From assembly GCA_036172245.1 (NCBI GenBank), contig JAYWIR010000026.1, positions 806,001 through 870,000 of the forward strand: a stretch of 64,000 bases of DNA, written 5' to 3'. The translations under genes were made by a program, and so were the position numbers. A model generated the notes under the pieces. It ran no database searches. It was given only the letters and a program-made list of their open reading frames with translations, and was not told the DNA's origin. Shown piece by piece: positions 1,141 through 56,048 of the stretch (its first letter is position 1; each line of letters starts with the position of its first letter). This DNA comes from Raillietiella orientalis. Taxonomy: Eukaryota.

Positions 1141-3136
1141 CACAAGGCGTTCGACTGTGTTCACCAAGAACTCCTCTCAAAGCTGCAGGGTTGCATGGTC
1201 TTCCCACCCTCCTTGATTTCCTACTTGCGCTCTTCCTGGTGAAACGCGATTATTACTATCTCTTTCAGTGGACAAAAGGTGTATGGCGTGTGGGTGCCGC
1301 GGGGCATAAGGCGGGGAGACAGACTCAGTCCCCTGCTCTTTATCACCTACTTTGAGTTGGTTCTGAGAGCGTATAGGATTACTTTGGCCCCCTTGCCGAG
1401 GTCGCGCCCGGCACGCCCTTCGTAGCAGCGTATGCCGACGATCTTCTCTTCTTGTTGCCGATGTCCACCCCGGCGAAGGCGGTCGGGGATTTCTTCGATC
1501 TGCTTAGCCGCGGGACCGGACTACAGGTTTACAGGGCGGAATCGTCGGTTGTTCCAAGAGGTGCGGCGTGGGCAGGGCAGCAGGACTGGGTACGTTTGGA
1601 GATCTCCACAGCCAGGTGCTTGAAGTGCCTTGGTGTGCGGTTGGGGGACTATTCCCCTGCGGAAGCGTGGTCTAGCTGCCTCCAAAAAGTCGAGACGACG
1701 ATCGGCCCGTTCTTGGAAGGAAAGTTTCACTTGCCTGAACGGGCCGCGCTTTGGAACGCTTTCGCAGCTTCCATCCTCCGCCCCTTGCATTTTGTTTGCC
1801 CCGCCCCCGTGAAATACCAGGAGCGAAGGAAGGACCTCCTTTGCATTGCCCCTTGGGGCAAGGGGAGGCCCCGAGTCCCTCTGAAGGACTTGTGCGCTCC
1901 GCGTCGGGACGGCGGTCTTGGCCTCCTGACGCAGCAGCGCGTGGAGAAACAGCTGCGATGGCGCACCCTCGCCCTCGCAGCGAAGCTATGGTGCAACCCT
2001 TGCTGCATTTCGGCCCGCCTCCTCGCCAGCCGTGTTTCCAGGTGCGAGGAACTCGCATCTTTTCTTCTGTGCCCCGGCCGGAAGATCAGAAGATGCGGCC
2101 TACTGCTTGGGCGCATGACAAGCTTGGCCATGGAGAAATGGTGGATGGCTTGCAGCCCCTGCGATCTCCTCCGCCTGGCTAAAGGAGACTGCTGGCACAT
2201 GGTGGAAGATAAACCTGTGAAGCGAAGATAATGGGAACTGCCGTTGAAACAGCAATTACTGCTGCCGCACTCTGCGGGAAATTCTGAAGTTCTCCGCGAG
2301 TTGGTAGTGGGCGTAAAGGACACCCCTCGTCACGGCGAGGCCCTTACTTAGGCGGGCGCTTTACGGAAGCCGGACACCATGGTGGCAGGTCTCTTACCGT
2401 ATCAAAGGCACCGAAAATAATATGAGCGGATGGACCATCAACGAGCTGGCCAATTCCACGACTTCGAGCGTCCACCCGCGTGGAATATTCAGATGAGGCG
2501 AGCTGCTCACCATCCCCAGGGATGAGCTGAAGTGGCCCCGGTATTCAATGAATTTAGGATCCTGCCCATTAAGTGGCAAAAGTCGGCGTTGTTGGTATTG
2601 CACTGTGGTCTTCCCTGCAACGCACGCCGCATCCACTAGATAAAGGGTGCTGTGGATCCTGCTTGTGCCAGGTGTGGGGAGCGGGATTCGCTCTCCCACC
2701 TGATTGTGGACTATTCTGCCCTCCGACCCCTTTGAGAACGGTTCTGGATGACCCTCGGGCTCCCTGCAGGCATCACTTGCAGAAACGTGGGGACATGGAT
2801 GAGAGATAAGTCATCCTGTATGCTGTAGGCTTTATGCGGAGAGCTGAGAGATGGCCCAAAATGGGAAGCATGCAGACGGACCTAGAGTGCTTCCTTCGAA
2901 GGAAGGGCACTCCCCAAAGCGAACAGTGCTAACATCCCTACCCTCCAGCTTCATTTTGCTTGTATATTTTTTTTATTTTTCCTTTTGTTTTTCCACATCT
3001 TCATTCGCTGTCGGATGGTGCCACGCCGGGCTGCGTCCCGGTGTCCCGGCAGGTTCAGTGTTTCCAGACGTGGTGGGGCCTCGTACCACGCATGTAGAGT
3101 TTGATCAATGAACGTCCCTGGCCGAAGCAGGAGGGG
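1141..3136 (+). mobile_element. Degenerate ORF2 3' half (RT to 3' UTR), family C/E-like
   Basis: HKAFDCV, RGIRRGD, AYADD, PRRDGGLG and C-terminal CARCGERDSLSHLIVD, with stops and frameshifts. T-rich 3' UTR and degenerate AATGAACGTCCC end. Confidence 0.9.
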
Positions 3137-4285
3137 TTCAGCCACCTGCACTTCCTCCTCCATGAAAATTGCCAGGTGCACGGTGTCGAGGAATAAGAGA
3201 TTTCCACCCTCGCGTCCCACGCCGCCGGCTTCCACCTTGGGGGTCGGTTCATATGCCTCCTCCTTAATCGGAATGCGCCTCCTGCGTTTCTAAGAATTGC
3301 GTCCCGTCTTCTTTGGTGGCGCCTCCGCTGAAGAGGACGCACTTCTGAAGTCCGGATAGGCCTAAAATGCATCCGGAGCCTTCCTCGCAGCCAACGTTCG
3401 TAAGGCTTTTCGAGAGTTCTTCTAGCGGCCTTGCAGTTCAGCCGAGAGTTCTTCAACCGCCTCCTGGAAGGCGGCCTCCTCGAGCGTGTCGAGCGCGGCT
3501 CGCGGTTCTCCCCCTGCTTCCCCAGATGGTTCGCCACCGACCGTCGCGGCTTCGTCAGACACGATGGGGGGGATTGCTCCCCCGGTGGCGGCATCGAGTG
3601 CCTCCTCACGCTCTAATGTCACCGAACACGCGCAAAGATTTGCGCGGTACGGTTTTTGGAGCTGCGTTTTTGTTTTCACCGCGTTTTCTTTGGGACTCAA
3701 GGGTTTTCTTCTTGGCTGTACCTTCCGCGAGCCTTAGCCGTTACCAGCTTCATCGGGTGTGCTCTAACCGAAGTTTGCTCGAATCGCTTAGGGACTGGCA
3801 TCTGGCTTTTTTAAACCTGTTTCAGGTTACTCTCCTCTCCCGTGCGTTTCCCCTTTGCCTTTTTGGCAGCGCGTGGGTCAGGGATTTCTGTTTTTGGGCA
3901 CACCTTGAGGATGTGGCCCTTATAGACACATAAGTGGCATTGGATGTTGGGGCACCGTTCTTCTAAGTGCCCTGTAGCATAGCAATGGCCACAATACTGG
4001 GCTTTCCCACGTACCAAACATCGACCTTTTCCTAGCCGATATTTAGTTTGTGGGGAAGCCCACCATTCTCTGGTAGTGCGACGCGCTTCCGCCTTCACAC
4101 TGGATAGCCTTCCGTACGTTCGGAAGGCATTGGGTTTGGCCCAGTACGCGTGCACACTATAATGTTTTGACAACTCCTCATGGACGCTGGTTTTGTCCAT
4201 ACGGAGTGTTACTCCCGTGAGGTGGACCACGACGGTGCAGTCCTCCGTCACAGGGAAGATCCAGCGGCCGTTCACGGTGATGGGG
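3137..4285 (-). mobile_element. ORF1 fragment, family F-like
   Basis: CGHCYATGHLEERCP..CHLCVYKGHILKVCP knuckles; nearly identical to 24862-25330. Confidence 0.88.
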
Positions 4286-4441
4286 TTTTTTCCCCCTACC
4301 CCATCCGTTGACCTGAAGTGTCAAGGCGGTCTTCGTACCGACCAGCCGACAGCACAAGGGAACTATTGGCCGCAGTGGGGCCTTGTACCTCAAATACTGT
4401 AAGCCTTTTTAAATAAAAGCCCCGGAATAACCGTGTGAAAA
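4286..4441 (+). mobile_element. 3' UTR/terminus of family B element
   Basis: Matches the reverse complement of 22971-23125; ends AATAAAAGCCCCGG..CCGTGTGAAAA. Confidence 0.85.
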
Positions 4442-6330
4442 CGTCGAACTGTACAGTGCGCAATACATTAGAGACGGCTGGCTTCAGCGGGAAGGCCACT
4501 CCGCGGGAGTGTTCCCCACTTGATCGCCAAAGTTGCCTCCCTCCTGTGAGCCTCTCGATCTTCTGAACGTCCTTTCTGAAAGCGTGTACCTCTTGGAGAA
4601 GTGCCATGTCGAAAGGTTGCAGGGTGTCGGCCACGCAAAGCCTCTTGCCTTCGTTACGCAGCCCGTTGACATTCCAAAAGTCTATACGCAACTTGCGGCA
4701 AGAGGCGATTCCGCGTATCATACTAATGATTTGTGGTGGCGATTTTGTTGCCGCTTACTGTTCGGGAGACGGCTGGTCGATGTCCAGCTGCATTGTCGGC
4801 GTTTCGGCTAGGGGCGAAACGTCAGCAGCTGGACTCAGGTCGATCGGGAGATCGGACCCGATGCTTTCCACGGAGGGATCACGCGACCTGGCGGACATGG
4901 CCTCCTCGTGCCCGAACTCATTTCCTTTACCTCAGCCTCAGGGAAAACGACTGGCACAGGGTTGCGGGACTTCCGGATCGCCTTCCTCTTCGGGAGGGCG
5001 ACAGCGGGAGCGCATCCAGTTTCCGTTTCCGACTCGGAACTTTCCGATCTTATGGTTTCGTCTGGGCGTCTCACGGCCTTCTTTGCAGCCTTAGGCGCCT
5101 GCATTAAGGTGGCCGCGATTTCTTCCTAAGCTTTCGCAGAGCTCTTCTGTCGCTGCTGCTTCTGTCCTTGCCGCTGGTTTCCTGCGTCGGTTCCGCGGCT
5201 TCGGCGACGGTTGTGGGTTTCTCGTTCGACGATCGACGCTCGATTGAAGGAGGTCGATCAATTGTAACGCGGCGTTCCCTTAACTCCTAGCAGGGCGGGA
5301 TTTTCTTTTGCCTTTCGCGGGTTTCCTCGGAACGCTCGCGTTCCCATTTAATTATATTTGTTGGGGTTTCTTGGTTTTGGTTTTGGACTTCTTTTGATTT
5401 TTTATTGATGACCCTTTTCCAGCATTTTTCGTCCGCAGAAGGCTTATAAGTTTCCTTTTGAGAATTCTGGTCATTCTGCACGACTTCTTCTGAAGTTATC
5501 TGGAGATCGCGTTGTATTTTCTTTTCCGCCTTCTTCATCTCTCCCTGTATTTTAATGGTTTTCGGCCTTAGAGCTGCGTATTTCCGGAACACGACGCTAG
5601 TGTGACCCTTCCCGTTGCATAATGGACATTTGGGTTTGTAGAGAATTCCGATGCATTCGCGGAGAGTTACGCGAGCTTCAAGTCGCCCAATAAATGCACC
5701 TCGATATGTAAAGGCGTTGGAACTGCTTCACATCGCGTATATCTCCGCGAATTTGTTCATTTTGGTGCGGAAGACTTCCTCGCTCATCGGCATAGTTGTA
5801 CCTGTAAGGTGGATCACTACTGTGTGATTCACCGTGTGTGGGAGGAGATTGCGTCCTTCAAAAGGAACGGGTGCGCGGAGCAGTATGTTCGGGAGCGCTG
5901 GATCTCTGGAGATCAGCTCCGAGAACTGCCCACCGCTCCGAACCTAAAAGCACAAAATCTCCTCATCTGTGATACTCATTCTACTGATGGCGTTGCCGAA
6001 TCACCGCGTTTTAAACGGAGAATATGAATTACCTACCTTATAAAGGAGGGCAGAGTTGTTAGTCTCCTCAAAGTAGGCGTGTACTTCAGCAGCCACGTCC
6101 GGCGGCGCCGCCGCGGTTACTTTCTTCCATGGCTTCGCCGGGGCGGCGGAGGCAGATTTTGTGATGGGACTTGACCCCACCTCCATGGATTGGGGTAACC
6201 AGGGCCCCACACCCCTCGTCGCAGGTGCTGCGGCGTCTTCAGGCATTGCTGTCTTCCAATGGCCGCTCATCCACAACCAAGGAAACTGCTTTTTTGTTTT
6301 CGCTCTCAGGAGCCCAGGAAAAATGCGTGC
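4442..6330 (-). mobile_element. Old element, family H: 5' UTR, decayed ORF1, start of endonuclease
   Basis: LLYKVGN, CPLCNGKGH, WNVNG..LLQEVH..GVAF with several stops; interrupted at TTCGACG by family B. Confidence 0.85.
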
Positions 6331-11874: not shown

Positions 11875-13042
11875 CTGGTAAGAAACTGGAGATCATCGCC
11901 CGCATTGCTCGAGTTTCGCTCCGTCGTTTGTGGGTTGCAACCGGCACACCAGCTGACCTCAGATTGAAAAATTGAGTCGCACGCGGATTTCGTTCGGTGC
12001 CTGTCCAGCCTTCCAACTTCCATCAGCAAAATTGCGTCAATTTTTACATTTCCTTTGTACATTTCAAAAGAACGTCAACCTTTACATATTAGTCGTACAT
12101 TTCTTTTTGTCTTAACAGCTCGATAGGGATTTGCCGCCCAGCTGCTCATCTCTCTCTTTTGCAATCCTGATTTTCTTTTTTCATATTCAGCAATCTGCAT
12201 GCCTAATGGCGTGCATAAAAGTCGCCTCGTTGAATTGATCACTTTCTTCGCTTTCAGTTGCGAGTAGAAATACTATTGTTCTTCCCTTTTCCGACTTTTG
12301 AGCCAATTCAAGAAAGGTCGGTGCCTCCAATCCAAAGGAAGGCTGCAAAGTTCCTCCCGAGAAGATACCTTTCTTCGAATTGAACAAAAATGCTACCACG
12401 TAGGAGGGATGTTCTCGAAGGTTCTCTTCCACGGGTACAAAGCAGATTAAAGGAAAGGTGGTTGGAATCTGCAAAAATCACGCACGCCTTGTTGTTCGAC
12501 GACTTGCAGTCAAGTGGCTCAAACATCTCGCACAATATGCGTTGGCAGTGGGCTGGTAGCACCTCTTGCAGCAATTGGAAGATCTGCGCAGAGGAAAGAA
12601 AGCTTCAGTCTCCTACTTTGTCTCTTTGGCATTCTGTGCAGCATGGATGGACCCAGGAAACACCAGGACACGAAGCAGAAGGTTTCAGGCGGAATGCTCG
12701 TCCCGAACTTGCGTATGGTAAGGATTTTTGTGCTTTCTGTAACTTCAACCCCGCTGTTGGAGAGGAGGTTCTTCCGAGATGATCTGCATGACGACGGTGT
12801 GAGTGCCCTCTTCCGATAGAAGCGACTCGTGCGAGGAGGAACTCCAATAAATTCGCTGTTCCTTTCCCCCCGGAAAGTTGGCCAGTCGGCTGCAGGCCGC
12901 GTATCCCCAACCGAATGTCATTTGCTGTTTCGAATGTGCAATCGAATGGCGGATGAATTGGACGGATTTGCGATAGGCCCGCTGTTCCTCACTTTATTCC
13001 GGCGGGATGAAAGTTTTCCAGAGATCCCGAAATTTCGGGACA

Positions 13043-13734
13043 ATGGCGGTTTCGAGAATCCCGTGGGCATATCGCTCCCCCTTTTGGTTGAATCGCATTG
13101 TGTGTAGTCGTTTGTTTCAGTGGCTGCTACTCGTGGTGGCTGTTCCATTTTCAAACATGAGCTCCCTTGGGACGAATCTACAAACGTTACGCCAGTCATC
13201 TGATGACGTCGCATTTCATAATCACTCCGGAGAGTGCACTCTCACTCTTCTCCCTCAAGATCTTGCAGGTGGGACCACAGACATTTGCATGCAGATGTGG
13301 ACACCGATAGGTTTGTCCCAACACGAGGATCTAGATTGTTCTGTTTCTGTCACGGTAAGTTGCCAATTCACTGGAAGAAGTATCTGGAAACTTCCTTGGT
13401 TCAGACTTTTAGAGGGGCACCTAGGAACGTATCTGTCAGATTTGTGGGTCCTGAGTATGAGGTCGAACAAGTGTGTAGCTGCTCGCTGACGCCCTGTGAA
13501 GGGTAAGGAGCGCTTGCCTTCGTGCTTCGATGCTGTCTTCATGTGTTTGGATGAGCAACGCTGCCGCTCTCCTTCACAAGTGGAAGGTTTCCCCGAAGTA
13601 GAGTGTTCCTCGCTGATCTTCTTCATGATTTTAACGGGCGTATAACCTTTGTTTGCGCAAATGGAATTGCCGGAAATTGCAGATGCTTCCGTGCACTTCA
13701 CTTTCCAAGGTGCACGATGATACGTGCTGATTAA
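13043..13734 (+). CDS. Predicted 4-exon, about 163-aa secreted Cys-rich protein, paralog 1
   Basis: Exons 13043-13048, 13121-13354, 13405-13502, 13581-13734 joined by GT-AG introns (donors GTAAGT and GTAAGG; acceptors TTTCAG and TTCAG) give an open frame. Signal-peptide-like MAWLLLVVAVPFS; 10 Cys. Confidence 0.55.
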
Positions 13735-14579
13735 TTTTCATGTAATTTCTAATAGTAACCAAATTTCAAAGGTGGTCATTGCTCATCCGCGATTTGACGA
13801 TATCACTTGAAAATTGTGATTTTCTGTCACGCCTAATTGGTTTCGCGCGTCAAAACGCTACGATCTCCTGCATTATCATTATAGGCTTCCGAAATTCATT
13901 CCCTTATATAGTTTTTGGGCGATATAAAAACTCTAATCCACACCAAGATGAGTGTGGTGTTCTATTTGGAGAACTTTTTCAGTGAGAACACGAAAACGAG
14001 CGGTGCTATCGTGTTGAAAACACCATTTCACGTGGACTGCCATTTTCCGAATGGCACATATTGCGTTCTACTCTTCAACGGAGTATAGAAAGACACAATA
14101 GATAAGGAGAGTATTGCTCAAAACAAGGACAGTTTTCTGTTTTCTGATGACGCAATAAATTGATTGACATTTCCTTAATTTTTTCGTTGGCCGACCAACA
14201 CACTACATTTGAGTGACTACTTTATCAATACATCAAGGTGGCTTTAATTGATGACAACAAAATTTATCACCCCAAGTATTTGTGAAATCAGAAAATAGCA
14301 TGTCGTAATACTTGTGATGAGATCCTGAGCATTCTCTTCAACAAGGACTACTAGGAATTTCGGGATCTGGTGCGAGCAGCGTCTTCCATGGAATCCCATA
14401 GGAAGTCGGATGTCATTGTTCTGCAAATGAAACTCAATGCTCTGTTTTACAACTCCGCCAGGAAGAGATACGAAACTCAGATAATTTAAGAGGAGAGCCA
14501 CAAATGTGATCCAGAACACAGTCCATTCCAAGAACAGCAATTTGCCTGCATAAGCCGGCTCTGGAATCGACAACTCCCC

Positions 14580-14871
14580 CTCACGCTGAGGAGGAAATGC
14601 GCTCGGGTAGCAAAGAGGCGATGTTTGCGAGGTCGCGTGATCCCTCCGTGGAAAGCGTGCGGTCCCATCTTCCGATCGAACTGAAGTTCCGGTCGTTTCT
14701 GAAACGCAAACTATCTGCTGGACATCGACCAGCTGTCTCCCGAACAGTAAGCGGCAACACAATCGCCACCACCATCATTAATATGATGCGTGGAATGGCC
14801 TCTTTCCGGCAGCTGCGTATAGCCTGTTGGAATGTCAACGAACAGAGTAGCGAAAGCAAGAGGCGTAGCGT
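14580..14871 (+). mobile_element. Family H-like fragment: ORF1 end and ORF2 start
   Basis: TGATG at 14784-14788, then MRGMASFRQLRIACWNVN; cut at the inner duplication breakpoint. Confidence 0.85.
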
Positions 14872-15275
14872 TGGCAAATTCTGTGGCTTCTGCATGACGT
14901 CGGGACACCTCAAAAGGAGGTGCCCTAACGTACAGTGCAAAGTATGCGGGACAATGGGCCAAACGAGGGAGGTGTGCCCACAAGCAGCAATGCGCGTGGT
15001 ATCCGCCCGTGACGCGAAATTGGCGCCCGACATCTGCAAAAAAGGCCGGCGGAAGCTTTCGCGAAAGCTGTACCACCCTCGCCCAAGGTCCAGGATGCAC
15101 CCGAGACACTGGAAAACACCGCCGAGAAGGTCGAGGTTAACGGCCAGGTGCCTGGGCGGCAGGTGGTAACAGCCAAAAAAAGTAAGAAAGGAAGAAGGCT
15201 AGAGAAAAAAATCGCCTACCAACAAAAGGAGAAAGAGAAAGGTAGCGCGATCATCGAAGATTGCAGCGTCGTCGT
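14872..15275 (+). mobile_element. Family D-like ORF1 fragment
   Basis: CGFCMTSGHLKRRCPNVQCKVCGTMG and KKIAYQQK..CSVVV; homologous to 47215-47617. Confidence 0.88.
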
Positions 15276-16593: not shown

Positions 16594-19218
16594 CCGTTAC
16601 CACCGGCGAAATCCTCGCTGGTATCAAAAGGCTCAACAGGCGTAATGCGCCAGGGGAGGACGGCCTGCCGGCGGAGTTCTTCCAGTGCTTCGCGGAAGAG
16701 CTGGCCCCCCTGGTCCTCGAGTTGACCAGGCTGATTCAAGACGAAAGCGATGTTCCCGCCTCCTTTCGGTCAGGCAGAGTAAAGCTCCTTCCGAAAGGAG
16801 GAGACCTCAGACAACTCAGCAGCTGGCGTCATACCACAATTGTGAACACAGACGCCAAGCTGATTGCCAAGCTGTGGGCTTCGCGTCTGGGACAGGTAGC
16901 CAACACCATAATTAGCTCGGAGAAGTCTTAAGCTGTTCCCGGGCGAAGTATGGAGGTGAAACTCTTCTTCGCGAGCACATGGTTTTACGTGCAGCGGATT
17001 CAGAAGAAGGGGAACAAGAAAATTTGCAAGCCCACTTTGGGGACTCCAGTGGGACAGGGAAGAGATTCCCGGGAGGGGAAGGGGTCCCTATCGCTCGCAG
17101 TAGATCTTCATAAGGCGTTCGACTGTGTTGACCAGGATCTTTTGTTGGAGCTCCTAGGTCGTATGGGCTTCCCACCCACCTTGATCACCTATTTGAGCTC
17201 CTGCTGGCGCCATGCGATGATTACCGTGTTTTTCAGTAGTCAGAAGGTGCATGGCGTGCCGGAGCGGCGGGGCATAAGGCAGGGAGACAGCCTCAGTCCC
17301 CTGCTCTTTAGCACCTACTTTGAGTTGGTGCTAAGAGCATATAGGGTCACATTGGCCCCCTTGCCGAGCTCGTGCCCTGGCACGCCCGCCGTAGCTGCTT
17401 ATGCCGACGATCTTCTGCTCTTGTTGCATATGTCCACCCCGGCGAAGGCGGCCGGGGATTTCTTCGACTTGCTCACCCGCGGGAGCGAACTACAGGTGAA
17501 CAGGGCGAAGTCGTCGGTGGTGCCAGTTGGTGAGACGTGGGCAGAGCAGCAGGACTGGATCCGTCTGGGGATCCCCACAGCGAGGTACCTCAAGTACCTG
17601 GGTGTGCTGCTGAGGGATTTTCCCTTTCGGAAGCGTGGTCCAGCTGCCTCCAGAAGGTTGAGACGGCTATTTGCCCGTTTCTGGAAGGCAAGTTTCACTT
17701 GCCGGAGCGGGCCGCGGTTTGGAACGCCTTTGCAGCCCCCATTCTCCACCCCTTGCTTTTTGTTTGCCCCGCCCCCGTAAAATGCAAGGAGCGGAGGAAG
17801 GACCTCCTTTGCATTGCCCTTTGGGGCAAGGGGAGGCCCCGAGTCCCTCTGAAGGACTTGTGCGCTCCGCGTCGGAACGGCGGTCTTGGCCTCCTGACGC
17901 TGAAACCCTGGAAGATCCAGCTGCGATGGCGAACCCTCACCTTCGCAACGAAGACGTGGAGCACCCCTTGGTGCGTTCCGGCTTTCCTCCTCGCCAGCCG
18001 TGTGTCCCGGTGCGAAAGACTCCCGTCTTTTCTTCTGTGCCCAAACTCGAAGATCAGAAGATACGGCCTACTGCTCGAACGCATGGCAACCCTGGCGAAG
18101 GAGAACAGCTGGATGGTTTGATGCTCCGCCAACTCCTCCGCCTGGATGGAGGAGACTTCTGGCACCTGGGTAAAGCTTAACCTGCGGAGCGAAGAATACT
18201 GTAACCGCCTGCGTTTCAGCAATTACGCCCGCCGCACTCTGCAGGAAATACAGGAGTTTCCTGCGAGCTGCACTTGTGCCGAAACGACACCCCTCGCTAA
18301 GACGATGCCCTACTTCCGGAGGGCGCTTTACAGAAGCCAGAAGCCGAGGTAACAAGTCTCCTGCCGAATCGCAGGCAGGGAGAAGAAGAGGAGCGGTTGG
18401 ACCATGGGAGTACTTGCAGACGCCACGATCCCGAGTGCCCTCGCGCGTGGACTTCTGAGATGGGGCGAGCTGCTCGGCATCCCGACGGATGACCTGATGT
18501 GGTCCCCAGTTCTCATCGGATCCAGACTTCTCCCCCTGAATTGGCAAGAGTCGGCGTTGCTGCTGTTGCATTGGGGTCTTCACTGCAACGCGCTCCGCTT
18601 CCACTAGACGCAGGGATGTGTAAGGCCTGAGTGTGCCCGGCGTGGGGAGCGGGAATAGCTCTCCACCTTCTTATGGACTGTTCTGCCCTCCGATCCTTAT
18701 GGAAATGGTTTGGGAAGACCCTCGCTCTCCAGGTGGGCAGCAATCCCAGGGACGTTCTTATGCTACTCTTCGTGCAAGACGCCCTGCAGCCCGCCGCTTC
18801 CCTAGCAGCCCTCTACTGTATCCGAGGAATCGTGGCGGCTTCGAGCGAAATGCGTTACGAAGATTGCCATTAGGAAAGGGTCGTCATCCCGTATGCTGCT
18901 CGTTTCATGAGATGTGCTGCAGGATGGCCCCAGCTGGGTGAAATCCGGATGGACCTCGAGGGTATCCTGCGAAGGATGGGACCTCCTTCTAGTGGACTGT
19001 GATCTCTTCCCCTCCCTCCTAACCATTTTTTTTCCTTATTTCTTTTATTTTTATTCTTATTTTGTCCCTTATCCACCTTTACTGCCGAGGAGCGTCCTGC
19101 CGGACTGCGTCCCAGCGTCCCGGCAGGTCCGGTGTTGTGTGGCCGTTAGGGGGGTCTTAAACCACGTTCTCTTTGTAGAGTTTTTTGAATAAACGCCCCA
19201 AGCGTACCTGAGTGGTAA
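16594..19218 (+). mobile_element. Family C ORF2 (RT through 3' end), 5'-truncated and degenerate
   Basis: APGEDG, LLPKGGD, DLHKAFD, QGDSLSP, YADD, KYLG, CPAWG..HLLMDC. End AATAAACGCCCC..GGTAA. Confidence 0.93.
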
Positions 19219-20680
19219 CCCCAAATCCCGCAGTTAGGCGATGCAAAGAGAACTGATCGCAGAACTCCTGGAACGACCGCTTGAAGCGGCCCCAGTCCTA
19301 AAACCTCCGCATCCTGAAGCTCCGTATAAACGCACGGAGATGTTTCGACGCGTCCGGGAGCTTCAGCGAGTTCCCTGGCAGACGCCACGCTGACGAGAAA
19401 GGCCCTTGTCGCTAGGATGCACTTCAAACACGATCCGACCATGGTCCAACAGCTCGGACGTAACTTGCTGCGCATGCCGACGCGAGAGCAAAGGTGCTGG
19501 ACAAGGAACACGTGATCGATGCTGCGTTCCATGGCCGTATCTCTGGCCAACAAGTTGCACGTGTGCATTTCTGCGCACAAATCGTTGACGCGGTCGTTGA
19601 GTGTATCCGGCGCACCTGTCAGCAGGCGCAGGTTGAAATCCCCTGCGATCAGGTGCGCTTTGCGAACGCCTGCTTCGGTCAGCCAATCGCGTCCGAGGGC
19701 AAGGTAGAATTCTCTTCTTGCCTTCGCCCTCAACGCGTCGTTACCGCTAGGAGCGTACAGGTTGGTGACGACCAGGTCGATAGAGTCGGACCAGCTGAGA
19801 GTCAGCTGATTGACGCGACCTGCGTCATCGAACCGAACGTCCTTTATTGCGGCCTCGATGGCTGGCCGGAGCAGGAAGACGACACCGCTTGATTTCACGG
19901 TGCCGCAGCGCCACAGCAGCCGTCCATCCGAGATCCGTTTGATCTGCTGGGCTTGATCTGCGGAGATCACGTGGATCTTCTGCAACAGTACCAGGTCGAA
20001 GGATGCCAGGGTGGCGGCCACGTCACGCCTCTTGCCGTCGTCGCTTAGCCCGTTGACGTTCCAGCAGGCGATCAGCAGACGACGAAAAGAGGCGATTCCC
20101 GGCATTATTGCTAGGAAAGTGGCGTTGCGGCACCTGCCGCGAAGCAGGTGTAGGGGATGTCCATGGGGACGAAGTCCTCTTCAGGCACCTGGGGCACCTG
20201 TTCTGCCTCCACCCTCTCGATCCCTTCCGTGTCGGAGCGTGGCATTCTCTCGGGTGACGGGTCCCGGAAGGTTCCCACGCTCATCGCACCCTCGCGACCG
20301 GAAGCCATCTCTTCCCCTTCGACGGGGAAGACGATCTTCCGGGGCTTTGTGGACTTGCGTCCAGCCTTTTTGCGGGGTGCGGTGGAGATGGAGGCTGTGC
20401 TTCCAGCCTCCACCTCAAGTCGGAAGTGGGAGACTCCTGAGGCAAAGTCGGACGCCTGACGACCTTCTTGCTATCCTTGGAGCCGGCCAGCTGCAGCGAG
20501 GCAGCCAGCTCCTCCGCGGCGCGCTCGAAGGCGACGTCATCGAGCGTGGGCTCGATGACGGACGCCGCCGCCTCGCTCCCCTCCTTGTTGACTTTGTCAA
20601 CGGAGGGTTGAGCACTGGCAGCAAAGAGTTCTTTTGCGCCTCATTCGTCGATGGCGGGAATCCGCTCCACAACGACGCCG
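19219..20680 (-). mobile_element. Family D-like ORF1 C-terminus and APE endonuclease
   Basis: TAATG at 20107-20103; WNVNG, NLYAP, AGDFN, SIDH motifs in ORF 19146..20105. Confidence 0.92.
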
Positions 20681-22970
20681 GACGGACGTGGACTGTGTTG
20701 TTCCTCGAGCGGGATTCCTTTCCGTCTTTGTGTTTGGTGTGCCCGAGTGCGTCCACTAGGAGTCCACGGCCCCCGTGCAGGAGAAGATGGATGTGGAGGC
20801 TGCAGCCGGCAATGGAGACTCCACTCCGCATGCCCTGCCCGCCTCTGATGCTTGTGTCTCGCCACCGGCGAGAAGCTTCGCCGCCGTCGTCAAGGCGACG
20901 GCAGCCAACGGACCACCGCCCGACAAAGCGGAGCTGCAGGCATATGCAGCCCATGGCTACAAGCCTGCGCTCTGCTATCCGGTGAGTGCTGCAATCTCCG
21001 ACGGGGTCGGAGAAAATCTATGGGACGAGCTTTTGCGCGTCGGGGTCCAACAGGACGACCTCCTGTCCGTCATGCCGGTTAACGCGCTCGGACACTGAAA
21101 AGTGCACTGCAAAGAGGCATCCCTAGTCCAGCGCCTTCTCCGCACCCCGCTAAACATGCGCGGGAAGGAGGTCGTCCCGTCGGCCATGGACCAGTCGTTC
21201 GTGGTCCGATTTTCCGCCATCCAGGTGGACACGCCCGATCGCGTGCTCGTCGCTGCACTTAGTGCATTCGCCACGGTGCACGTGCTGTGGAGAGCAGACA
21301 ATCCTATCAAAAAGACTGCATCTCTCCACAGCGGACTTGTAATGGCGCGTGTCACCGTGGCGGATAGGAGGCACTTGCAGTTGGGCGATGCGATGGTCCA
21401 CCTTAAATTTGCCGGTCAGCGACCGGCTTGCGGCATTTGCAGTGCAGAGGGCCACCGTCCGTGGACGTGCCCTTCACGCAACTGCCGCTATTGTAAACAG
21501 CTCGGCCACTCCATCAAAGAGTGCGCCGAGCTGAAGAGAAAGATGCAGGCGAAAAGCTGCCAACAATCGACCCCGTCCGCGCCGAAAAGATCCCCCGTTG
21601 TGCCACGGGAGAAATCGGGCGCGAAGGACGGGGCATCTTCGAGTGGCGGTCCTGCGAAAAAGGGCGCGGTCGCTTCAGGGAAGCCACCATCCCAGACAGC
21701 CGCGCAGACGGGAAAGATGCCACGTCGCCCTGGGGGCAAATCGCCCCCTTCGAAGCAGCCTAAGAGTGCAGGCACGCACTCAATCAAGGCTGCTGAACCG
21801 TCCGCGTCCGCTTGCGCGTCCAGCGGAGCACACGGGAAACCGTGCGCGGGTACCCTCGGAGCAGCCTCTGAACGGCGGTCTCCACCTACGGCGGTGGAGA
21901 TCACGTCTTCCACGCCGGAGGCACGAGCAGCGAAGGCTGCAATAGCGCCTCGCGAGACGACGGCAATGACCGCCGTTTCGCCCGCATCGGCTAAGGAGCA
22001 GGTGCAGTGCGTAACGGGGACGGAGCCGTCTCCCGCCGCGAGCGCGAAACGTGAGCCGGCATCTCCGGCCAAACAATTGAGGGAGGCGTCGGCCTCCCAG
22101 GAGGGCGTCCCCGACGCGGGCTGGACTCGCGTCTCCAGGACGCCCACAAAGGGGAAGAAAAAGGTTGACCCTTCAATATTCCCCATCCTTAAGGTGGGTG
22201 GGAGGCAAAAGAGAAGCACGCCGAAGAAGGTGCGCACCCAGGTACGCACTACGGCTGCGTGCTCTGTCTCTGTCGCTTCGCGCGAGAGGGCGGCTGCGGA
22301 AGCCAAAGCTCCGGAAGCTGCGTTGGCGACTGCGACGACCCCCGCGCGGGCAGGGCAAGCCTCCACCTGCCGAAACAAAAAGAGACTGGCAAAACGCCAG
22401 TCTCGCGCCAGGCACTCGGACTCCGAGGTGGAGTCCGAGTGCAAACAAATGGAGCGCGCACCCCGGGGTAAGCCGGTAGCGCGCCGGGCTAAAGTGCGAA
22501 AGCACGAGCCTGTTGCCGGAGGCGGTTCCGGCTCCTGCACGGAGACCGAGGCGATGATCCTCGGCTCCCAGGACTCAGCTGGGCGCGATGTGGCGGCGAA
22601 CGGGAACGATTCCGCTTCCCAATCCGCTCTCCTACCAGCTGACTTCTCGCCGGACGGGGCGAGGAGCACGCCGTCATGTCCGCAGCAGTGATGCGTGGAC
22701 TCGCGTCCGCTCGTCGCGTCAGCGTGGCCTGTTGGAATGTCAACGGGCTACGTGATGCTGACAAAAGGCGGACGGTAGCCAACGCTTTGCGCGCGTTCGA
22801 TCTGGTGCTGCTGCAGGAGATACATAGCATCTCCGTACGGCAGGCATCGGATCTGGAAGAGCGCGCGGGCGGGACGCTACACTGGCGGCAAGGCTCCGCG
22901 CACACGTGCGGAGTCGCGTTCCTCGTCCGAGGCAGGGCGGCCGAGGCGGTGCAGAACGTTTGTTTCGACG
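20681..22970 (+). mobile_element. Family G: 5' UTR, ORF1 (20787-22691, one internal TGA at 21096), start of endonuclease
   Basis: CGICSAEGH..CRYCKQLGH knuckles; TGATG overlap at 22689-22693; WNVNG..LLQEIH. Confidence 0.92.
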
Positions 22971-23445
22971 TTTTCACCCGGTCAAGCCGGGGCGTTTATT
23001 TAAAAACTAACAGTATTTGCGGTACTAGGCCCCGCTGCGGCCAATAGTTCTATGGAGCTGTCTGGTGGTCAGTGCACAGACCAACATAACACTCCACGTC
23101 AACGGATGGGGTTAGGGAAAAAACAAAAATAAAAAAAAATAAAAAGTAGAAACACTGGTCATTGGGAGGGACGGAAAGGGATCACTGTCCGTTGCGTGGA
23201 GCTTCAATTCTTTGCAGGATGCCGACAAGGTCCTGATACAGATTTCCCAGGTGGGGCCATCGGGATGCTATTCGCAGAAAGCGAGCTGCATACTTCATGG
23301 CATTCCTTCTGTTAACATCCTCTGCTTCGTCGAATCCACTCCAAGCTGCCACAATACCGAGTACGCAGCAGAGAGCTGCTATTACAGCAGCTGGCTGCAG
23401 GGCGTCCCGCACGAAGAGGAGCCGAAAAACGTCTCTGGGAAGTGG
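22971..23445 (-). mobile_element. Family B 3' end
   Basis: RDVFRLLFVRDALQPAA..SRWPHL; terminus AATAAACGCCCCGGCTTGACCGGGTGAAAA. Confidence 0.88.
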
Positions 23446-24071
23446 GGGGAAATAGAGACCTTCTCCCACTTAATCATCGAGTGTGTTGCCCTCCGTCATA
23501 GGTGGGATCGACTATTATCGATCCTGAACATCCCGGGGGGCGACCCCATGAACATTTTTAGGCGCCTCCTGATGCAGGACGCCATGAGAACCTCCGGGTG
23601 TGTAGCAGGGCTCTGTTTTGCATATGCGGAATCCTGGTTAAATGTACCGTGTTAAGGAGAGGCCGGACCAGTCGGAATGCCATTCACTGTGCAGTGATTT
23701 CCTTGAAGAAGGCCTGCCGTTAGTGCCGACTCACGAAACAATTAACGGCACTTGTTCGCATCCGGAACCGGATGCAGAGGCTTCACGGCGTACCATGATC
23801 CCCTCCCTTCCCCCCCTCCTCCGAAAGACCATTGCCCCCTCCAGGCATTTTTCTTTGTTTTTTTTTTTTTGTTTTTCCCGCCCCTGCGCCAATGTGAAAG
23901 ACCTCATCGGCCTGATGGTCGGTGAGGTCAAGTGCCGAAATACAGATAAAAACTTATGAAATGACGTAAAAAAGAAAAACATTTTTAACAAAAAAAAGAA
24001 TTTATACTGGAATTTTTTCTTTATGTAGAAAAATTTTAATAATAAAAACCTCTACTCACCAGGGTGAAAAA
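23446..24071 (+). mobile_element. 3' end of a further family (J)
   Basis: ETFSHLIIECVAL (end of the CCHC finger), A/T-rich UTR, AATAAAAACC..CCAGGGTGAAAAA. Confidence 0.75.
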
Positions 24072-25872
24072 GTCGGGTGAACTACCTGGTCGGGGGAGAC
24101 GCTAGGAAGAGGGGCTGCATCGAACACCGCTTCTTCCTCCTCCAAGGGGGCCGAATCGTCGTCAGGGCCGTTCAGATGAAAGGCGGGTTTACCCACCTGC
24201 ACTTTCTCCTCCATGGGGGTCGCCACCCGCACGGTGTCGAGGAATGAGAGATTCCCACCCTCGCGTCCCACGCAGCCGGCTTCCCATCGGAGGCCGATTC
24301 ATCCGCATCTTTCTTGATCCGGAAGCGCCTCCTGGGATTCAAAGACTTACGTCCCGTCTACTTTGGCGGCACCTCCGCAGAAGAAAACTCACTTCTGACG
24401 TCCGGGTCCGCCTCACCAGCATACGGAGCCTTCTTCGCGGCTGGCCTTCCTAAGGCTTTTCGCGATTCCTTCTCGCGGCCTTAGAGTTCAGCCGCGTGTT
24501 CTTCCACCGCCTCCTGGAAGGCGGCATCCTAGATCGCGTCGAGCGCGATGCGCGGTTCTCCTTCTGCTTCCCGAGACGGTTTGCCATCGACCGTCGCGGC
24601 TTTGGCGGACACGATGGGGGGGATTGCTCCCCCGGTGGCGGCATCGAGTGCCTCCTCACGCTCTAATATCACCGAACACGCGCGAAGATTTGGGCGGTAC
24701 GGTTTTTCGAGCTGCGTTTTTGTTTTCACCGCGTTTTCTTCGGGACTCAAGGGTTTTCTTCTTGGCTGTACCTTCCGCGAGCCTTAGCCGTCACCAGCTT
24801 CATCGGGTGTGCTCTCAACCGAAGTTTGCTGGAATTGCTTAGGGACTGGCATCTGGCTTTTTTAAACCTGTTTCAGGTTACTCGCCTCTCCCGTGCGTTT
24901 CCCCTTTGCCTTTTTGGCAGCGCGTGGGTCAGGGATTTCTGTTTTTGGGCACACCTTGAGGATGTGGCCCTTATTGACACATAAGTGGCATTGGATGTTG
25001 GGGCACCGTTTTTCTAAGTGCCCTGTAGCATAGCAATGGCCACAATACTGGGCTTTCCCACGTACCAAACATCTACCTTTTCCTAGCCCATATTTAGTTT
25101 GTGGGGAAGCCCACCATTCTCTGGTAGTGCGACGCGCTTTCGCCTTCACACTGGAAAGCCTTCCGTACGTTCGGAAGGCATTGGGTTTGGCCCAGTACGC
25201 GTGCACACTATAATGTTTTGACAACTCCTCATGGACGCTGGTTTTGTCCATACGGAGTGTTACTCCCGTGATCTGGACCACGACGGTGCGGTCCTCCGTC
25301 ACAGGGAAGATCCAGCAGCTGTTCACAATGATGGCGGTGTCTAGCAGGCGCTGCGCCAGACTCTCGTCTGGGCATATCAGCTGAACTCGCTGTGCCCCAC
25401 TAAGGACGGATAGGCCGTCGAGGTCTTCCTCCCTCCCATTCAGTCTTTGCTGCTCCATTTCAAAGGAGCGTGCAATTTTCTCGTCTAACACACTGCCTAC
25501 CTTATAGATCAGCGGCGATTTGTAGCCGCTGTCCTTGTAAACAGTCTTCTCCACTACTGCAGCCGGGGATGACGCATAGACAATGGCACTCCAGCTCCTC
25601 GCCTCTGACGAAGAGTGTCGATAAGGAGCGGTTGCAGCTGATTCGGATATGGCATGTGCCCCGGATTCCGTGGGGGCGGACGCCCCCAATTTCATGGGTG
25701 GAGGAGAGCAAGTCGCCTCTCCTCCTCCAATTTCCATCGCGGTGTCCTCAAGCATTTCTGCCATGGAACACCGGCGCTCCCACACACCAGACTAAACCAC
25801 CCAAAACCTACGCGCTTCCCAGACCGCTGTGCGATGCCACACCACTTCCGCTCCATAGAAGGAAACAGGTGT
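24072..25872 (-). mobile_element. Family F-like 5' UTR and ORF1 (frameshifted)
   Basis: MAEMLEDTAME..LIYKVG..two CCHC knuckles..PMEEKVQV..PSVSPDQV. Confidence 0.9.
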
Positions 25873-26457
25873 GAATCCCAATGAGCAAGAATCCCTCCTG
25901 CACCTTTTATTTGACTGTGCTGCCCTCCGGCCCCTTTGGAAACGCTTCGGTTCCACCTTAGGCTTCCTGGAAGGTAGTCTTCCCAGAGACATTTTCCGGT
26001 TTCTCTTCGTACCGGACTCCCTGCATCCAGCCGCTGTCGTAGTAGGTCTCAGCTGCGTGCGCGTTAGTGTGGCAGCTTGGAGTGGATCCGACGAAACAGA
26101 AGATGTTAACGGAAGCGATGTCACGTAGTCTGCAGCTCGCCTTCTGCGAATAGCAAGCCGATGTCCCCAACTAGGAAATCTGCACAAGGATTGCGTCGGC
26201 ATCCTGTAAAGGATGGAATGTATACGCAACGAACAGTGATTTCTTCCCACTTCTCCGAGGAACCGTGGCTTTTGCCTAAATTTGTCTTCACTTTTATTTT
26301 TGTTTCGTCCTTAACCTCATCCGCTGACGTAGTCTTTCAAGTCGGTCTGCGCATCGACCATCCTAGAAATCTATACACTCACTGGTCACAGAGGGGCCTT
26401 GTACCGCAAATACTGTAAGTCTTTTTAAATAAACGTCCCAGCTTGAGCAAGTGAAAA
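25873..26457 (+). mobile_element. Family B 3' end
   Basis: ESLLHLLFDCAAL..RDIFRFLFV; terminus AATAAACGTCCCAGCTTGAGCAAGTGAAAA. Confidence 0.87.
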
Positions 26458-26932
26458 CGTCGAACTGTATAGTTTGCGACTCCTGGCATCGGCTGAAAGG
26501 CCACTACGCAAGAGTGGTCTCCACCGGAACGCCAAAGTAGCTCCCACCCTGTGAGCCTCTCGATTTCTTGGACGTCTTCTCCCCTGAGTGCGTGAACCTC
26601 TTGGAGAAGTGCCATGTCGAAAGGTCGCAGGGTGTCGGCCACGCTACGCCTCTTGCTTTCGCTACTCAGTTCGTTGACATTCCAACAGGCTATACGCAGC
26701 TGCCGGAAAGAGGCCATTCCACGCATCATATTAATGATGGTGGTGGCGATTGTGTTGCCGCTTACTGTTCGGGAGACAGCTGGTCGACGTCCAGCAGATA
26801 GTTTGCGTTTCAGAAACGACCGGAACTTCAGTTCGATCGGAAGATGGGACCGCACGCTTTCCACGGAGGGATCACGCGACCTCGCAAACATCGCCTCTTT
26901 GCTACCCGAGCGCATTTCCTCCTCAGCGTGAG
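26458..26932 (-). mobile_element. Family H-like ORF1 end and endonuclease start
   Basis: WNVN..LLQEVH in ORF 26379..26915; interrupted at TTCGACG. Confidence 0.87.
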
Positions 26933-27777
26933 GGGGAGTTGTCGATTCCAGAGCCGGCTTATGCAGGCAAATTGCTGTTCTTGGAATGGACTGTGTTCTG
27001 GATCACATTTGTGGCTCTCCTCTTAAATTATCTGAGTTTCGTATCTCTTCCTGGCGGAGTTGTAAAACAGAGCATTGAGTTTCATTTGCAGAACAATGAC
27101 ATCCGACTTCCTATGGGATTCCATGGAAGACGCTGCTCGCACCAGATCCCGAAATTCCTAGTAGTCCTTGTTGAAGAGAATGCTCAGGATCTCATCACAA
27201 GTATTACGACATGCTATTTTCTGATTTCACAAATACTTGGGGTGATAAATTTTGTTGTCATCAATTAAAGCCACCTTGATGTATTGATAAAGTAGTCACT
27301 CAAATGTAGTGTGTTGGTCGGCCAACGAAAAAATTAAGGAAATGTCAATCAATTTATTGCGTCATCAGAAAACAGAAAACTGTCCTTGTTTTGAGCAATA
27401 CTCTCCTTATCTATTGTGTCTTTCTATACTCCGTTGAAGAGTAGAACGCAATATGTGCCATTCGGAAAATGGCAGTCCACGTGAAATGGTGTTTTCAACA
27501 CGATAGCACCGCTCGTTTTCGTGTTCTCACTGAAAAAGTTCTCCAAATAGAACACCACACTCATCTTGGTGTGGATTAGAGTTTTTATATCGCCCAAAAA
27601 CTATATAAGGGAATGAATTTCGGAAGCCTATAATGATAATGCAGGAGATCGTAGCGTTTTGACGCGCGAAACCAATTAGGCGTGACAGAAAATCACAATT
27701 TTCAAGTGATATCGTCAAATCGCGGATGAGCAATGACCACCTTTGAAATTTGGTTACTATTAGAAATTACATGAAAA

Positions 27778-35181: not shown

Positions 35182-38100
35182 GCACGCATTTTTCCTGGGC
35201 TCCTGAGAGCGAAAACAAAAAAGCAGTTTCCTTGGTTGTGGATGAGCGGCCATTGGAAGACAGCAATGCCTGAAGACGCCGCAGCACCTGCGACGAGGGG
35301 TGTGGGGCCCTGGTTACCCCAATCCATGGAGGTGGGGTCAAGTCCCATCACAAAATCTGCCTCCGCCGCCTCGGCGAAGCCATGGAAGAAAGTAACCGCG
35401 GCGGCGCCGCCGGACGTGCCTGCTGAAGTACACGCCTACTTTGAGGAGACTAACAACTCTGCCCTCCTTTATAAGGTAGGTAATTCATATTCTCCGTTTA
35501 AAACGCGGTGATTCGGCAACGCCATTAGTAGAATGAGTATCACAGATGAGGAGATTTTGTGCTTTTAGGTTCGGAGCGGTGGGCAGTTCTCGGAGCTGAT
35601 CTCCAGAGATCCAGCGCTCCCGAACATACTGCTCCGCACACCCGTTCCTTTTGAAGGACGCAATCTCCTCCCACACACGGTGAATCACACAGCAGTGATC
35701 CACCTTACAGGTACAACTATGCCGATGAGCGAGGAAGTCTTCCGCACCAAAATGAACAAATTCGCGGAGATATACGCGATGTGAAGCAGTTCCAACGCCT
35801 TTACATATCGAGTTGCATTTATTGGGCGACTTGAAGCTCGCGTAACTCTCCGCGAAAGCATCGGAATTCTCTACAAACCCAAATGTCCATTATGCAACGG
35901 GAAGGGTCACACTAGCGTCGTGTTCCGGAAATACGCAGCTCTAAGGCCGAAAACCATTAAAATACAGGGAGAGATGAAGAAGGCGGAAAAGAAAATACAA
36001 CGCGATCTCCAGATAACTTCAGAAGAAGTCGTGCAGAATGACCAGAATTCTCAAAAGGAAACTTATAAGCCTTCTGCGGACGAAAAATGCTGGAAAAGGG
36101 TCATCAATAAAAAATCAAAAGAAGTCCAAAACCAAAACCAAGAAACCCCAACAAATATAATTAAATGGGAACGCGAGCGTTCCGAGGAAACCCGCGAAAG
36201 GCAAAAGAAAATCCCGATCTGCTAGGAGTTAAGGGAACGCCGCGTTACAATTGATCGACCTCCTTCAATCGAGCGTCGATCGGCGAACGAGAAACCCACA
36301 ACCGTCGCCGAAGCCGCGGAACCGACGCAGGAAACCAGCGGCAAGGACAGAAGCAGCAGCGACAGAAGAGCTCTGCGAAAGCTTAGGAAGAAATCGCGGC
36401 CACCTTAATGCAGGCGCCTAAGGCTGCAAAGAAGGCCGTGAGACGCCCAGACGAAACCATAAGATCGGAAAGTTCCGAGTCGGAAACGGAAACTGGATGC
36501 GCTTCCGCTGTCGCCCTCCCGAAGAGGAAGGCGATCCGGAAGTCCCGCAACCCTGTGCAAGTCGTTTTCCCTGAGGCTGAGGTAAAGGAAATGAGTTCGG
36601 GCACGAGGAGGCCATGTCCGCCAGGTCGCGTGATCCCTCCGTGGAAAGCATCGGGTCCGATCTCCCGATCGACCTGAGTCCAGCTGCTGACGTTTCGCCC
36701 CTAGCCGAAACGCCGACAATGCAGCTGGACATCGACCAGCCGTCTCCCGAACAGTAAGCGGCAACAAAATCGCCACCACAAATCATTAGTATGATACGCG
36801 GAATCGCCTCTTGCCGCAAGTTGCGTATAGACTGTTGGAATGTCAACGGGCTGCGTAACGAAGGCAAGAGGCTTTGCGTGGCCGACACCCTGCAACCTTT
36901 CGACATGGCACTTCTCCAAGAGGTACACGCTCTCAGAAAGGACGTTCAGAAGATCGAGAGGCTCACAGGAGGGAGGCAACTTTGGCGATCAAGTTTGGAA
37001 CACTCCCGCGGAGTGGCCTTCCCGCTGAAGCCAGCCGTCTCTAATGTATTGCGCACTGTACAGTTCGACGTTTTCACACGGTTATTCCGGGGCTTTTATT
37101 TAAAAAGGCTTACAGTATTTGAGGTACAAGGCCCCACTGCGGCCAATAGTTCCCTTGTGCTGTCGGCTGGTCGGTACGAAGACCGCCTTGACACTTCAGG
37201 CCAACGGATGGGGTAGGGGGAAAAAACCCCATCACCGTGAACGGCCGCTGGATCTTCCCTGTGAAAGAGGACTGCACCGTCGTGGTACACCTCACGGGAG
37301 TAACACTCCGTATGGACAAAACCAGCGTCCATGAGGAGTTGTCAAAACATTATAGTGTGCACGCGTACTGGGCCAAACCCAATGCCTTCCGAACGTACGG
37401 AAGGCTATCCAGTGTGAAGGCGGAGGCGCGTCGCACTACCAGAGAATGGTGGGCTTCCCCACAAACTAAATATCGGCTAGGAAAAGGTCGATGTTTGGTA
37501 CGTGGGAAAGCCCAGTATTGTGGCCATTGCTATGCTACAGGGCACTTAGAAGAACGGTGCCCCAACATCCAATGCCACTTATGTGTCTATAAGGGCCACA
37601 TCCTCAAGGTGTGCCCAAAAACAGAAATCCCTGACCCACGCGCTGCCAAAAAGGCAAAGGGGAAACGCACGGGAGAGGCGAGTAACCTGAAACAGGTTTA
37701 AAAAAGCCAGATGCCAGTCCCTAAGCGATTCGAGCAAACTTCGGTTAGAGCACACCCGATGAAGCTGGTGATGGCTAAGGCTCGCGGAAGGTACAGCCAA
37801 GAAGAAAACCCTTGAGTCCCGAAAGAAACGCGGTGAAAACAAAAACGCATCTCGAAAAACCGTACCGCGAAAATGTCCGCGCGTGTCCGTTGAAATTAGA
37901 GCGTGAGGAGGCACTCGATGCCGCCACCGGGGGAGCAATCCCCCCCATCGTGTCTGACGAAGCAGCGACGGTCAGTGGCGAACCATCTGGGGAAGCAGGG
38001 GGAGAACCGCGAGCCGCGCTCGACACGCTCGAGGAGGCCGCCTTCCAGGAGGCGGTTGAAGAACTCTCGGCTGAACTGCAAGGCCGCTAGAAGAACTCTC

Positions 38101-50133: not shown

Positions 50134-50211
50134 GAGTGCGGACGTGTTTTTCTTCGCTCTCGTCTCCGTGCTTTCATCCGCTTCATCTTGGCGTCGTACA
50201 TTTTGACGACG

Positions 50212-55727: not shown

Positions 55728-56048
55728 TCATTGCCCTACCCTCCATAAACTAAATTTGTATTTTCTTTTACACCCGCGTCCCCATAGGCTCCGGAACATT
55801 TGAGGTGCTCATCGTTTAAATCCCCGTGAGTACGGAGCCTAACCAAAAACCCTTTTCCCTTCCCTCCAGTTTTTGATTTTTGTTTGTTTCCCCTCATTCC
55901 CCCCACGCTGCGAGCGGTTTGTTTACCAGGCCTGCGTGCCGGTAATTTTTCTATGTTCTCCGTCGTTCTCTTGGTTGGGGACATTGTCCCTGACCAGTTT
56001 ATTATTATTAATAAACGCCCCGGCGTGACCGGGTGATAAATTTCAATC

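Follow-up and report, generated by a model that had tools for sequence, protein, structure and literature searches.

Antisense joints of one LINE 3' end to a single base of the endonuclease genes of other LINE families in Raillietiella orientalis

The stretch analysed here (the window) comprises 64,000 nucleotides of Raillietiella orientalis (GCA_036172245.1, contig JAYWIR010000026.1, positions 806,001 to 870,000) and is a dense pile of fragments of long interspersed nuclear elements (LINEs). One of them, element B, consists of the C-terminus of open reading frame 2 (ORF2) and the 3' untranslated region (3'UTR) of what is probably a LINE of the apurinic/apyrimidinic (APE)-endonuclease type, and its 3' end, GTGAAAA, meets other LINEs inside their endonuclease genes. 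As a reference for these genes we used the intact ORF2 of family A (52101-55727, 1208 aa), which carries an APE endonuclease domain (PF03372, residues 26-233, E 2e-12) and a reverse transcriptase (RT) domain (PF00078, residues 474-745, E 2.4e-21). Among solved proteins, human L1 ORF2p comes nearest to it (E 1.7e-44), and the nearest proteins that a search of a large collection brought up are at most 31% identical and bear no clade labels. Residues 103-108 of family A read FDDNGR, a segment that pairs with K90-R91-D92...G95 of the human L1 endonuclease in a pairwise alignment.

Element B is represented in the window by 3' pieces only; they are ~156, 472, and ~590 nt long and end alike at GTGAAAA (Table 1). 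Such variable 5' truncation from a common 3' terminus is the usual LINE pattern. The ORF2 C-terminus shows the motifs ESLLHLLFDC...LPRDIFRFLF...SRWPHL and is followed by about 210 nt of 3'UTR; a short C-terminal stretch at 25871-26074 matches residues 1087-1153 of the intact ORF2 (tblastn, 34%, E 2e-6). We refer to the three B loci by the host element that each one adjoins (G, H, and H-like). At the G locus the stop codon lies near 23182 (ORF 23182-23469, minus strand) and the piece is 5'-truncated or interrupted at 23442, and at the H-like locus the 5' limit falls somewhere between 25765 and 25870. The pieces are clearly related: 22964-23442 (G) matches 26464-25979 (H-like) at 77.6%, and 4285-4448 (H) matches 23124-22964 (G) at 81.7%. 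Neither an endonuclease nor an RT of B is present in the window, and the conserved box of the B 3'UTR, scanned for as an exact pattern, was found neither in metagenome contigs nor in prokaryote genome contigs (0 stretches in each). On this sequence evidence, B is best read as a non-LTR (long terminal repeat) retrotransposon of the same L1-like group as its neighbors. Element A1 (1117-3133, plus strand) appears to be a cousin, with a 3'UTR that aligns with that of B over ~200 nt (common boxes GGGGCCTNGTACC and AATAAACG.CCC); it ends without an A-run against the K spacer, at ~3131-3134, which is a different landing site.

Direct reading of the sequence places the break at 22970/22971, where cagaacgtttgtTTCGACG gives way to TTTTCACccggtcaagccgggg; the host strand reads GTTTGT TTCGACG and continues from 22971 with TTTTCACCCGGTCAAGCCGGGGCG. 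The 14-mer across the joint, GTGAAAACGTCGAA (GTGAAAA/CGTCGAA), occurs four times in the window without a mismatch; the expected number is 0.02, and none of 100 shuffles yielded at least four copies. Two of the four, at 4441 and 37070, represent a single event, because they are mirror copies in a 13.7-kb inverted duplication (1144-14875 versus 40367-26638, 99.09% identity over 13,734 columns in a self-comparison). Three loci remain, namely G (22970/22971), H (4441/4442), and H-like (26457/26458), and these joints, together with the mirror relation of 37070, are as the initial annotation had described them. The duplication has a spacer of 11.8 kb that contains the G and H-like joints, which face each other with 3.5 kb between them, and its boundary at 26638 (mirror 14875) lies within the H-like endonuclease fragment. 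All four B tails, or three of three at independent loci, have the identical flank and orientation, with B antisense to the endonuclease gene, and every B piece adjoins residue 104, at the F-D of FDDxGR, of an endonuclease N-terminus. The flanks of B are thus not random. An operational definition of a target-specific LINE asks that more than 20% of the flanks in a family be of one sequence type (Kojima, 2015; PMC4494074, in the portion available to us); here one host flank is shared by three of three independent B termini (four of four with the mirror), all in one window.

The host genes were recognized by tblastn of the window with the intact ORF2, whose matches lie on the strand opposite to B and stop at the joint in G and H. 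The G frame reads MSAAVMRGL...CWNVNGL...LLQEIH...CFD up to the break, and because an ORF1 is contiguous with the start of this ORF2, the G flank is a genuine LINE 5' half. The H frame runs from MIRGIASCRKLRIDFWNVNGL to RTVQFD at the break. The H-like gene is decayed and frameshifted near the joint, and 26383-26934 there matches 4367-4943 of H at 79%. Together with the aligned codons, these matches bear out the proposal that the flank consists of endonuclease F-D codons in antisense. G and H, which had been called distinct families, indeed share only 54% DNA identity over 317 aligned columns. Elsewhere in the pile, a 918-aa open frame (46170-48926, plus strand) has no Pfam match and contains two successive ORF1-like segments (46569-47330 and 47898-48755); it probably represents two elements joined in frame through nesting.

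We considered that CGTCGAA might be part of B instead of host sequence. Different LINE families of the window have a common 3' terminal box of about 30 nt (AATAAACGCCCCGG.....CCGGGTGA[A/T]AA), while their remaining 3'UTRs are unrelated. The last 30 nt of B at 22971 differ at one position from the family A version, AATAAACGCCCCGGCGTGACCGGGTGA[A/T]AA, which is common to three family A termini; looser versions stand at 15276, 42896, 24071, and ~19212. All other termini in the window stop at the A-run. When nine endonuclease N-termini are aligned as DNA, four uninterrupted genes read TTC GAT GAC at the corresponding place and three interrupted ones read TTCGACG and then B, so that TTCGA(C/T)G lines up with the F-D codons of the uninterrupted genes. 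Because the end of the box is defined from sister families with other flanks, and because of this codon alignment, CGTCGAA belongs to the host: B stops at the shared box, and uninterrupted genes carry the site. A 3' hairpin at the box was also considered but gained no support from covariation: of the 5 pairs that RNAalifold predicted from 8 termini, 0 showed compensatory changes, and we therefore speak of a box conserved in sequence and not of a proven structure. The terminus at 42896 (...CCAGGGTGATAA) likewise abuts an endonuclease gene in antisense (42690-42893, plus strand) at about residue 73 (...IAGG codons), a landing site that differs from the fixed site of B.

A single copied composite, in which one ancestral B insertion (host 5' half plus antisense B tail) was duplicated or trans-mobilized and then diverged, predicts equal divergence of the B and host parts at any pair of loci. 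We compared the two parts for each pair by Fisher's test. Between H and G, B is identical at 126/154 columns (82%) and the host at 171/317 (54%, p=2e-9); between G and H-like, the values are 365/473 (77%) for B and 174/309 (56%) for the host (p=1e-9). The H and H-like loci depart from equality in the other direction, with B at 109/156 (70%) and the host at 256/308 (83%, p=0.0017), and the adjoining pieces of element K are 91% identical (1047/1151). The B copy at H is thus nearer to that at G than to that at H-like (p=0.017), whereas the host at H is nearest to H-like; the groupings conflict, B giving ((H,G),H-like) and the host ((H,H-like),G). This conflict speaks in favor of B having arrived three times, from sublineages that had diverged. 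Copying within the window is real, the 4441/37070 pair being a product of the inverted duplication; in addition, the order K(-)-B(+)-host(-) is common to the H and H-like loci, and the facing arrangement of the G and H-like joints also suits a composite. Yet G and H differ at the family level (67% versus 44% protein identity to family A), and judged from the sequences compared, the independence of their joints is beyond doubt. We consider a single composite very unlikely for the whole set; at least two independent hits at one base had been proposed initially, and the contrasts and conflicting groupings yield three.

The heptamer TTCGACG is not enriched in the window (13 matches versus 10.7 expected); what is non-random is its joint with the B tail. 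With mirrors counted once there are 11 independent sites, of which three are occupied, and these are exactly the three at endonuclease F-D codons, a pattern that under the heptamer alone has a probability of 1/C(11,3) = 1/165 = 0.006. One alternative is a short, weak cleavage preference for a few bases (e.g., CGAC/G), with the recurrence at F-D reflecting the abundance of a conserved motif in a LINE-rich region. Consistent with it, only seven host bases are common at the joint and the upstream bases differ between G and H; moreover, two other tails meet CG-rich cores (GTCGGG at 24071 and ACGACGACG at 15276), and the window is densely LINE. A short preference does not readily account for three joints at the identical base and strand alongside eight empty heptamers (p about 0.006), and we regard it as unlikely. 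Recognition by B probably takes in more than the heptamer, reaching into upstream sequence or into the downstream half that is lost, three events being too few to define its extent.

Intact family A carries TTCGATGAC (F-D-D) at the corresponding position and is unoccupied. All four matches to this sequence in the window are such endonuclease codons (0.49 expected). The uninterrupted copies, from three families, therefore all read TTCGATGAC, and the hit copies (22964-22970, 4442-4448, 26458-26464) all read TTCGACG, a C/T split between hit and unhit genes (3 versus 3 families, one-sided p about 0.05) that may reflect escape by synonymous change, CpG decay, or chance.

Taken together, these results suggest that B is probably a target-specific LINE: its endonuclease would nick the sense strand just 3' of TTCGACG, and reverse transcription would be primed at that nick. 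In this scheme, the B endonuclease would cut the sense strand of the endonuclease gene of another LINE directly after the F-D codons at residue 104, and the freed 3'-OH would prime reverse transcription of the B RNA from its CCGGGTGAAAA end (GUGAAAA), that is, target-primed reverse transcription. The product on the host strand would be ...TTCGACG-TTTTCAC..., with B antisense and usually 5'-truncated. That the cut is made by B's own endonuclease, that it reads more than the heptamer, and how the 5' end is resolved are parts of this proposal. The cut position is uncertain by 0-2 nt, as the uninterrupted relatives read TTCGATGAC and not TTCGACGAC; the C and G at the joint may conceivably have been added. 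Because sister families share a near-identical RNA terminus but have different flanks, the site is more likely selected by the endonuclease protein than through base pairing between RNA tail and target; no tail-target microhomology was seen against the uninterrupted target.

Precise targeting by this group of LINEs is directly visible in family A, where host sequence is retained on both sides of the insertion. A family-E endonuclease gene runs through residues 3-167 to 50132, is followed by two tandem, full-length A copies in the sense orientation (97.6% identical), and continues from residue 165 at 61954. The A copies lie in the GDFN codons, and each joint repeats ATTTCAATC.

The joints of B might also date from the retrotransposition or repair of the host element, through twin priming, template switching, or recombination. 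B pieces do stand head-to-head with truncated LINE pieces, which recalls twin-priming inversions, and no downstream half of a host is seen. The joint in question, however, is not head-to-head but unites the exact 3' terminus of B with an internal base of the host, and the two parts come from different families rather than from adjacent parts of one RNA. In addition, uninterrupted hosts continue with ACAACGG, ACGACGG, or ACGCAGG and offer no U-rich stretch that could pair with GTGAAAA, and for breaks to recur at one base, a site-specific nick would be required all the same. We hold this origin to be highly improbable.

Several observations weigh against site-specific insertion by B. No 5' junction of B and no target-site duplication were found in the window, and none of the 34 ORF2 matches from tblastn begins within residues 100-110, so that the downstream half of a host is missing as well. 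Host target on both sides of B, with a short duplication or deletion, is therefore not seen; later insertions and deletions may lie behind this, and we have lowered the claim accordingly, treating the insertion stated in the initial annotation as something we infer. The 5' sides of B adjoin foreign truncated LINE pieces head-to-head, an arrangement for which later insertions or deletions are needed. The eight empty TTCGACG sites, two of them reading TTCGACGAC, lie outside F-D codons; one is inside B's own ORF2, at 23334. The contrast between H and H-like is the weakest link in the case for independence, with only 156 B columns. Finally, there are only three events, all within one 64-kb window.

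The neighbors of B fit a Russian-doll history of later antisense insertions into B together with deletions, and the inverted duplication may have removed flanks. At the G locus the neighbor is M, another LINE's ORF2 C-terminus and 3'UTR, whose tail CCAGGGTGAAAAA adjoins the K spacer. The other two copies of B are flanked by K pieces, which meet B at different positions, ~-156 and ~-590 from the B end; K may have a preference of its own for ORF2 C-termini like that of B, or one of the loci may owe its shape to deletions. Placing G and M together as one element nested inside K, with K on both sides and a 2.9-kb deletion, would have supplied B with host sequence on either side, but the attempt failed, which is a further point on the unfavorable side: in family-E coordinates, the minus-strand element at 19220-20540 (1324-1522) overlaps K (1387-1705) and so is not its continuation. 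K as the next tandem copy of H was likewise rejected, since the K ORF1 and the ORF1 that lies upstream of H (5602-6246) share only 28% identity.

A wider scheme, which we offer tentatively and think somewhat less probable than not, would be a guild of sibling L1-like LINEs with a common 3' RNA terminus, in which each endonuclease has evolved a different long site in the conserved coding motifs of its rivals. The site of B would be the sense-strand codons of FDDxGR, insertion there would destroy the rival endonuclease, and the synonymous TTCGATGAC would confer resistance in an arms race.

Protein-guided, RNA-templated gene insertion is rare in nature; site-specific LINEs exemplify it, and R2-type elements are under development for such use. 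Related APE endonucleases that differ in their long targets would amount to a natural experiment on DNA reading by this fold. If the proposal for B is true, retrotransposons would be treating the conserved coding sequence of one another as a safe place to land. This would also explain how Russian-doll LINE islands build themselves, and it makes one ask how genomic parasites compete and escape.

Table 1. Coordinates of B copies, host genes, termini, and neighboring elements in the window
Feature	Position	Strand	Description
B copy, G locus	22971..23442	-	ORF2 C-terminus and ~210 nt 3'UTR; end CCGGGTGAAAA at 22971
B copy, H locus	4286..4441	+	last ~156 nt of 3'UTR; GTGAAAA at 4441
B copy, H locus, mirror	37071..37226	-	not independent; inverted duplication
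B copy, H-like locus	25870..26457	+	ORF2 C-terminus from CxxxC...ESLLHLLFDC motif and 3'UTR; GTGAAAA at 26457
Joint 14-mer	4435-4448	+	pattern search
Joint 14-mer	22964-22977	-	pattern search
Joint 14-mer	26451-26464	+	pattern search
Joint 14-mer	37064-37077	-	pattern search
Host G ORF1	21099..22691	+	530-aa frame; CCHC knuckle CGICSAEGHRPWTCPSRNCRYCKQLGH
Host G, ORF2 start and endonuclease residues 2-104	22661..22970	+	tblastn 22661-22969, 67%, E 4e-37; ends TTCGACG
Host H, upstream of ORF2 and endonuclease residues 2-104	4442..4943	-	tblastn 4443-4763, 44%, E 2e-20; ends TTCGACG
Host H, mirror copy	36569..37070	+	tblastn 36749-37069, residues 2-104
Host H-like, decayed endonuclease N-terminus	26458..26934	-	tblastn 26496-26747, residues 5-88, 54%; TTCGACG at 26458-26464
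Unoccupied site, intact family A	52407-52415	+	TTCGATGAC (F-D-D)
Further unoccupied site	58322-58330	+	TTCGATGAC
Further unoccupied site	49938-49946	+	TTCGATGAC
Further unoccupied site	19824-19832	-	TTCGATGAC
Terminal box, family A	56010-56039		terminus 56039; flank ATTTCAAT; GDFN codons, sense
Terminal box, family A	61925-61954		terminus 61954; flank ATTTCAAT; GDFN codons, sense
Terminal box, family A	44215-44244	-	terminus 44215; flank ATTTCAAT; GDFN codons, sense
Terminal box, B	22971-23000	-	flank CGTCGAA; F-D codons, antisense
Terminal box	15276	-	flank ACGACGACG
Terminal box	42896	-	flank TCAGACCCC; endonuclease IAGG codons, antisense
Terminal box	24071	+	flank GTCGGGTG; K spacer
Terminal box	~19185-19212	+	terminus ~19212; flank CCCCAAATC
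Tandem A copies, full length	50125-56048, 56040-61963		sense; in GDFN codons of family-E endonuclease
Family-E host around A tandem	49638-50132, 61954-63996		ATTTCAATC repeated at each joint
M, neighbor of G-locus B	23443..24073	+	ORF2 C-terminus (from WGEIETFSHLIIEC) and 3'UTR; head-to-head with B
K, neighbor of H-locus B	3134..4285	-	ORF1 residues 154-310 and ~680 nt downstream; 93% to K ORF1; head-to-head
K, second copy, beside H-like B	24074 to ~25870	-	5' region meets B between 25765 and 25870

Among known systems, the Tx1 group comes closest. In the portion of Kojima (2015; PMC4494074) available to us, Tx1 inserts in the piggyBac element Tx1D, Keno in U2 genes, and Kibi and Koshi in microsatellites; the crocodilian Tx1-Mar occupies two fixed regions of Mariner-N4_AMi, one of them in the opposite direction (~position 240), Tx1-8_Crp and Tx1-4_AMi sit in LTR retrotransposons, and target choice is attributed to the endonuclease. 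Going by the same excerpts, the Tx1 group resembles the present case in that APE-endonuclease LINEs lie at a fixed position and orientation within another transposon family, and it resembles family A in having tandem copies that sandwich the target duplication. It differs, as far as those excerpts go, in that the target here is a protein-coding motif of sibling LINEs, their endonuclease gene, and in that sister families occur in one array, each with a different site; B is likened to the group by its targeting only, having no RT or endonuclease in the window.

Zepp and ZeppL, L1-type LINE clusters of green algae, target existing copies and form tandem arrays of 3' ends, according to the excerpted accounts (PMC8226300, PMC3446292). 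As described there, they share with the window the entry of LINEs into LINE copies and GC-rich nests made mostly of 5'-truncated 3' ends. Zepp, in those accounts, is one family hitting its own copies, whereas B is found antisense, at one base, in other families, and the excerpts of PMC3446292 and PMC8226300 mention neither a fixed codon-level site nor antisense orientation. Self-nesting in tandem arrays of one orientation is not what is seen for B, which lies antisense in hosts of two distinct families (G and H), one of which might yet be its own. Cnl1 of Cryptococcus is reported, in the part of PMC9942834 available to us, to enter its own copies near telomeres, in tandem orientation. It is likewise a LINE that prefers LINE copies and builds nested arrays, on that partial account, which in contrast to what we see for B does not describe antisense entry at a coding motif of other families.

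For R1Bm and the R1 clade, the excerpted source (PMC1919474) gives an APE endonuclease that cuts a defined sequence, target-primed reverse transcription, and precise 3' joints, as proposed here for B; the target in that account is a multicopy host gene (28S ribosomal DNA) and not a retrotransposon gene. Full-text literature searches brought up no LINE that has a coding motif of other LINE families as its fixed target and enters it in antisense; they did not extend to the supplements of Kojima (2015), where more transposon targets may be listed. On present sequence evidence, B would be a variant of Tx1/R1-type targeting, and what appears to be new is a target within a coding motif of sibling LINEs.

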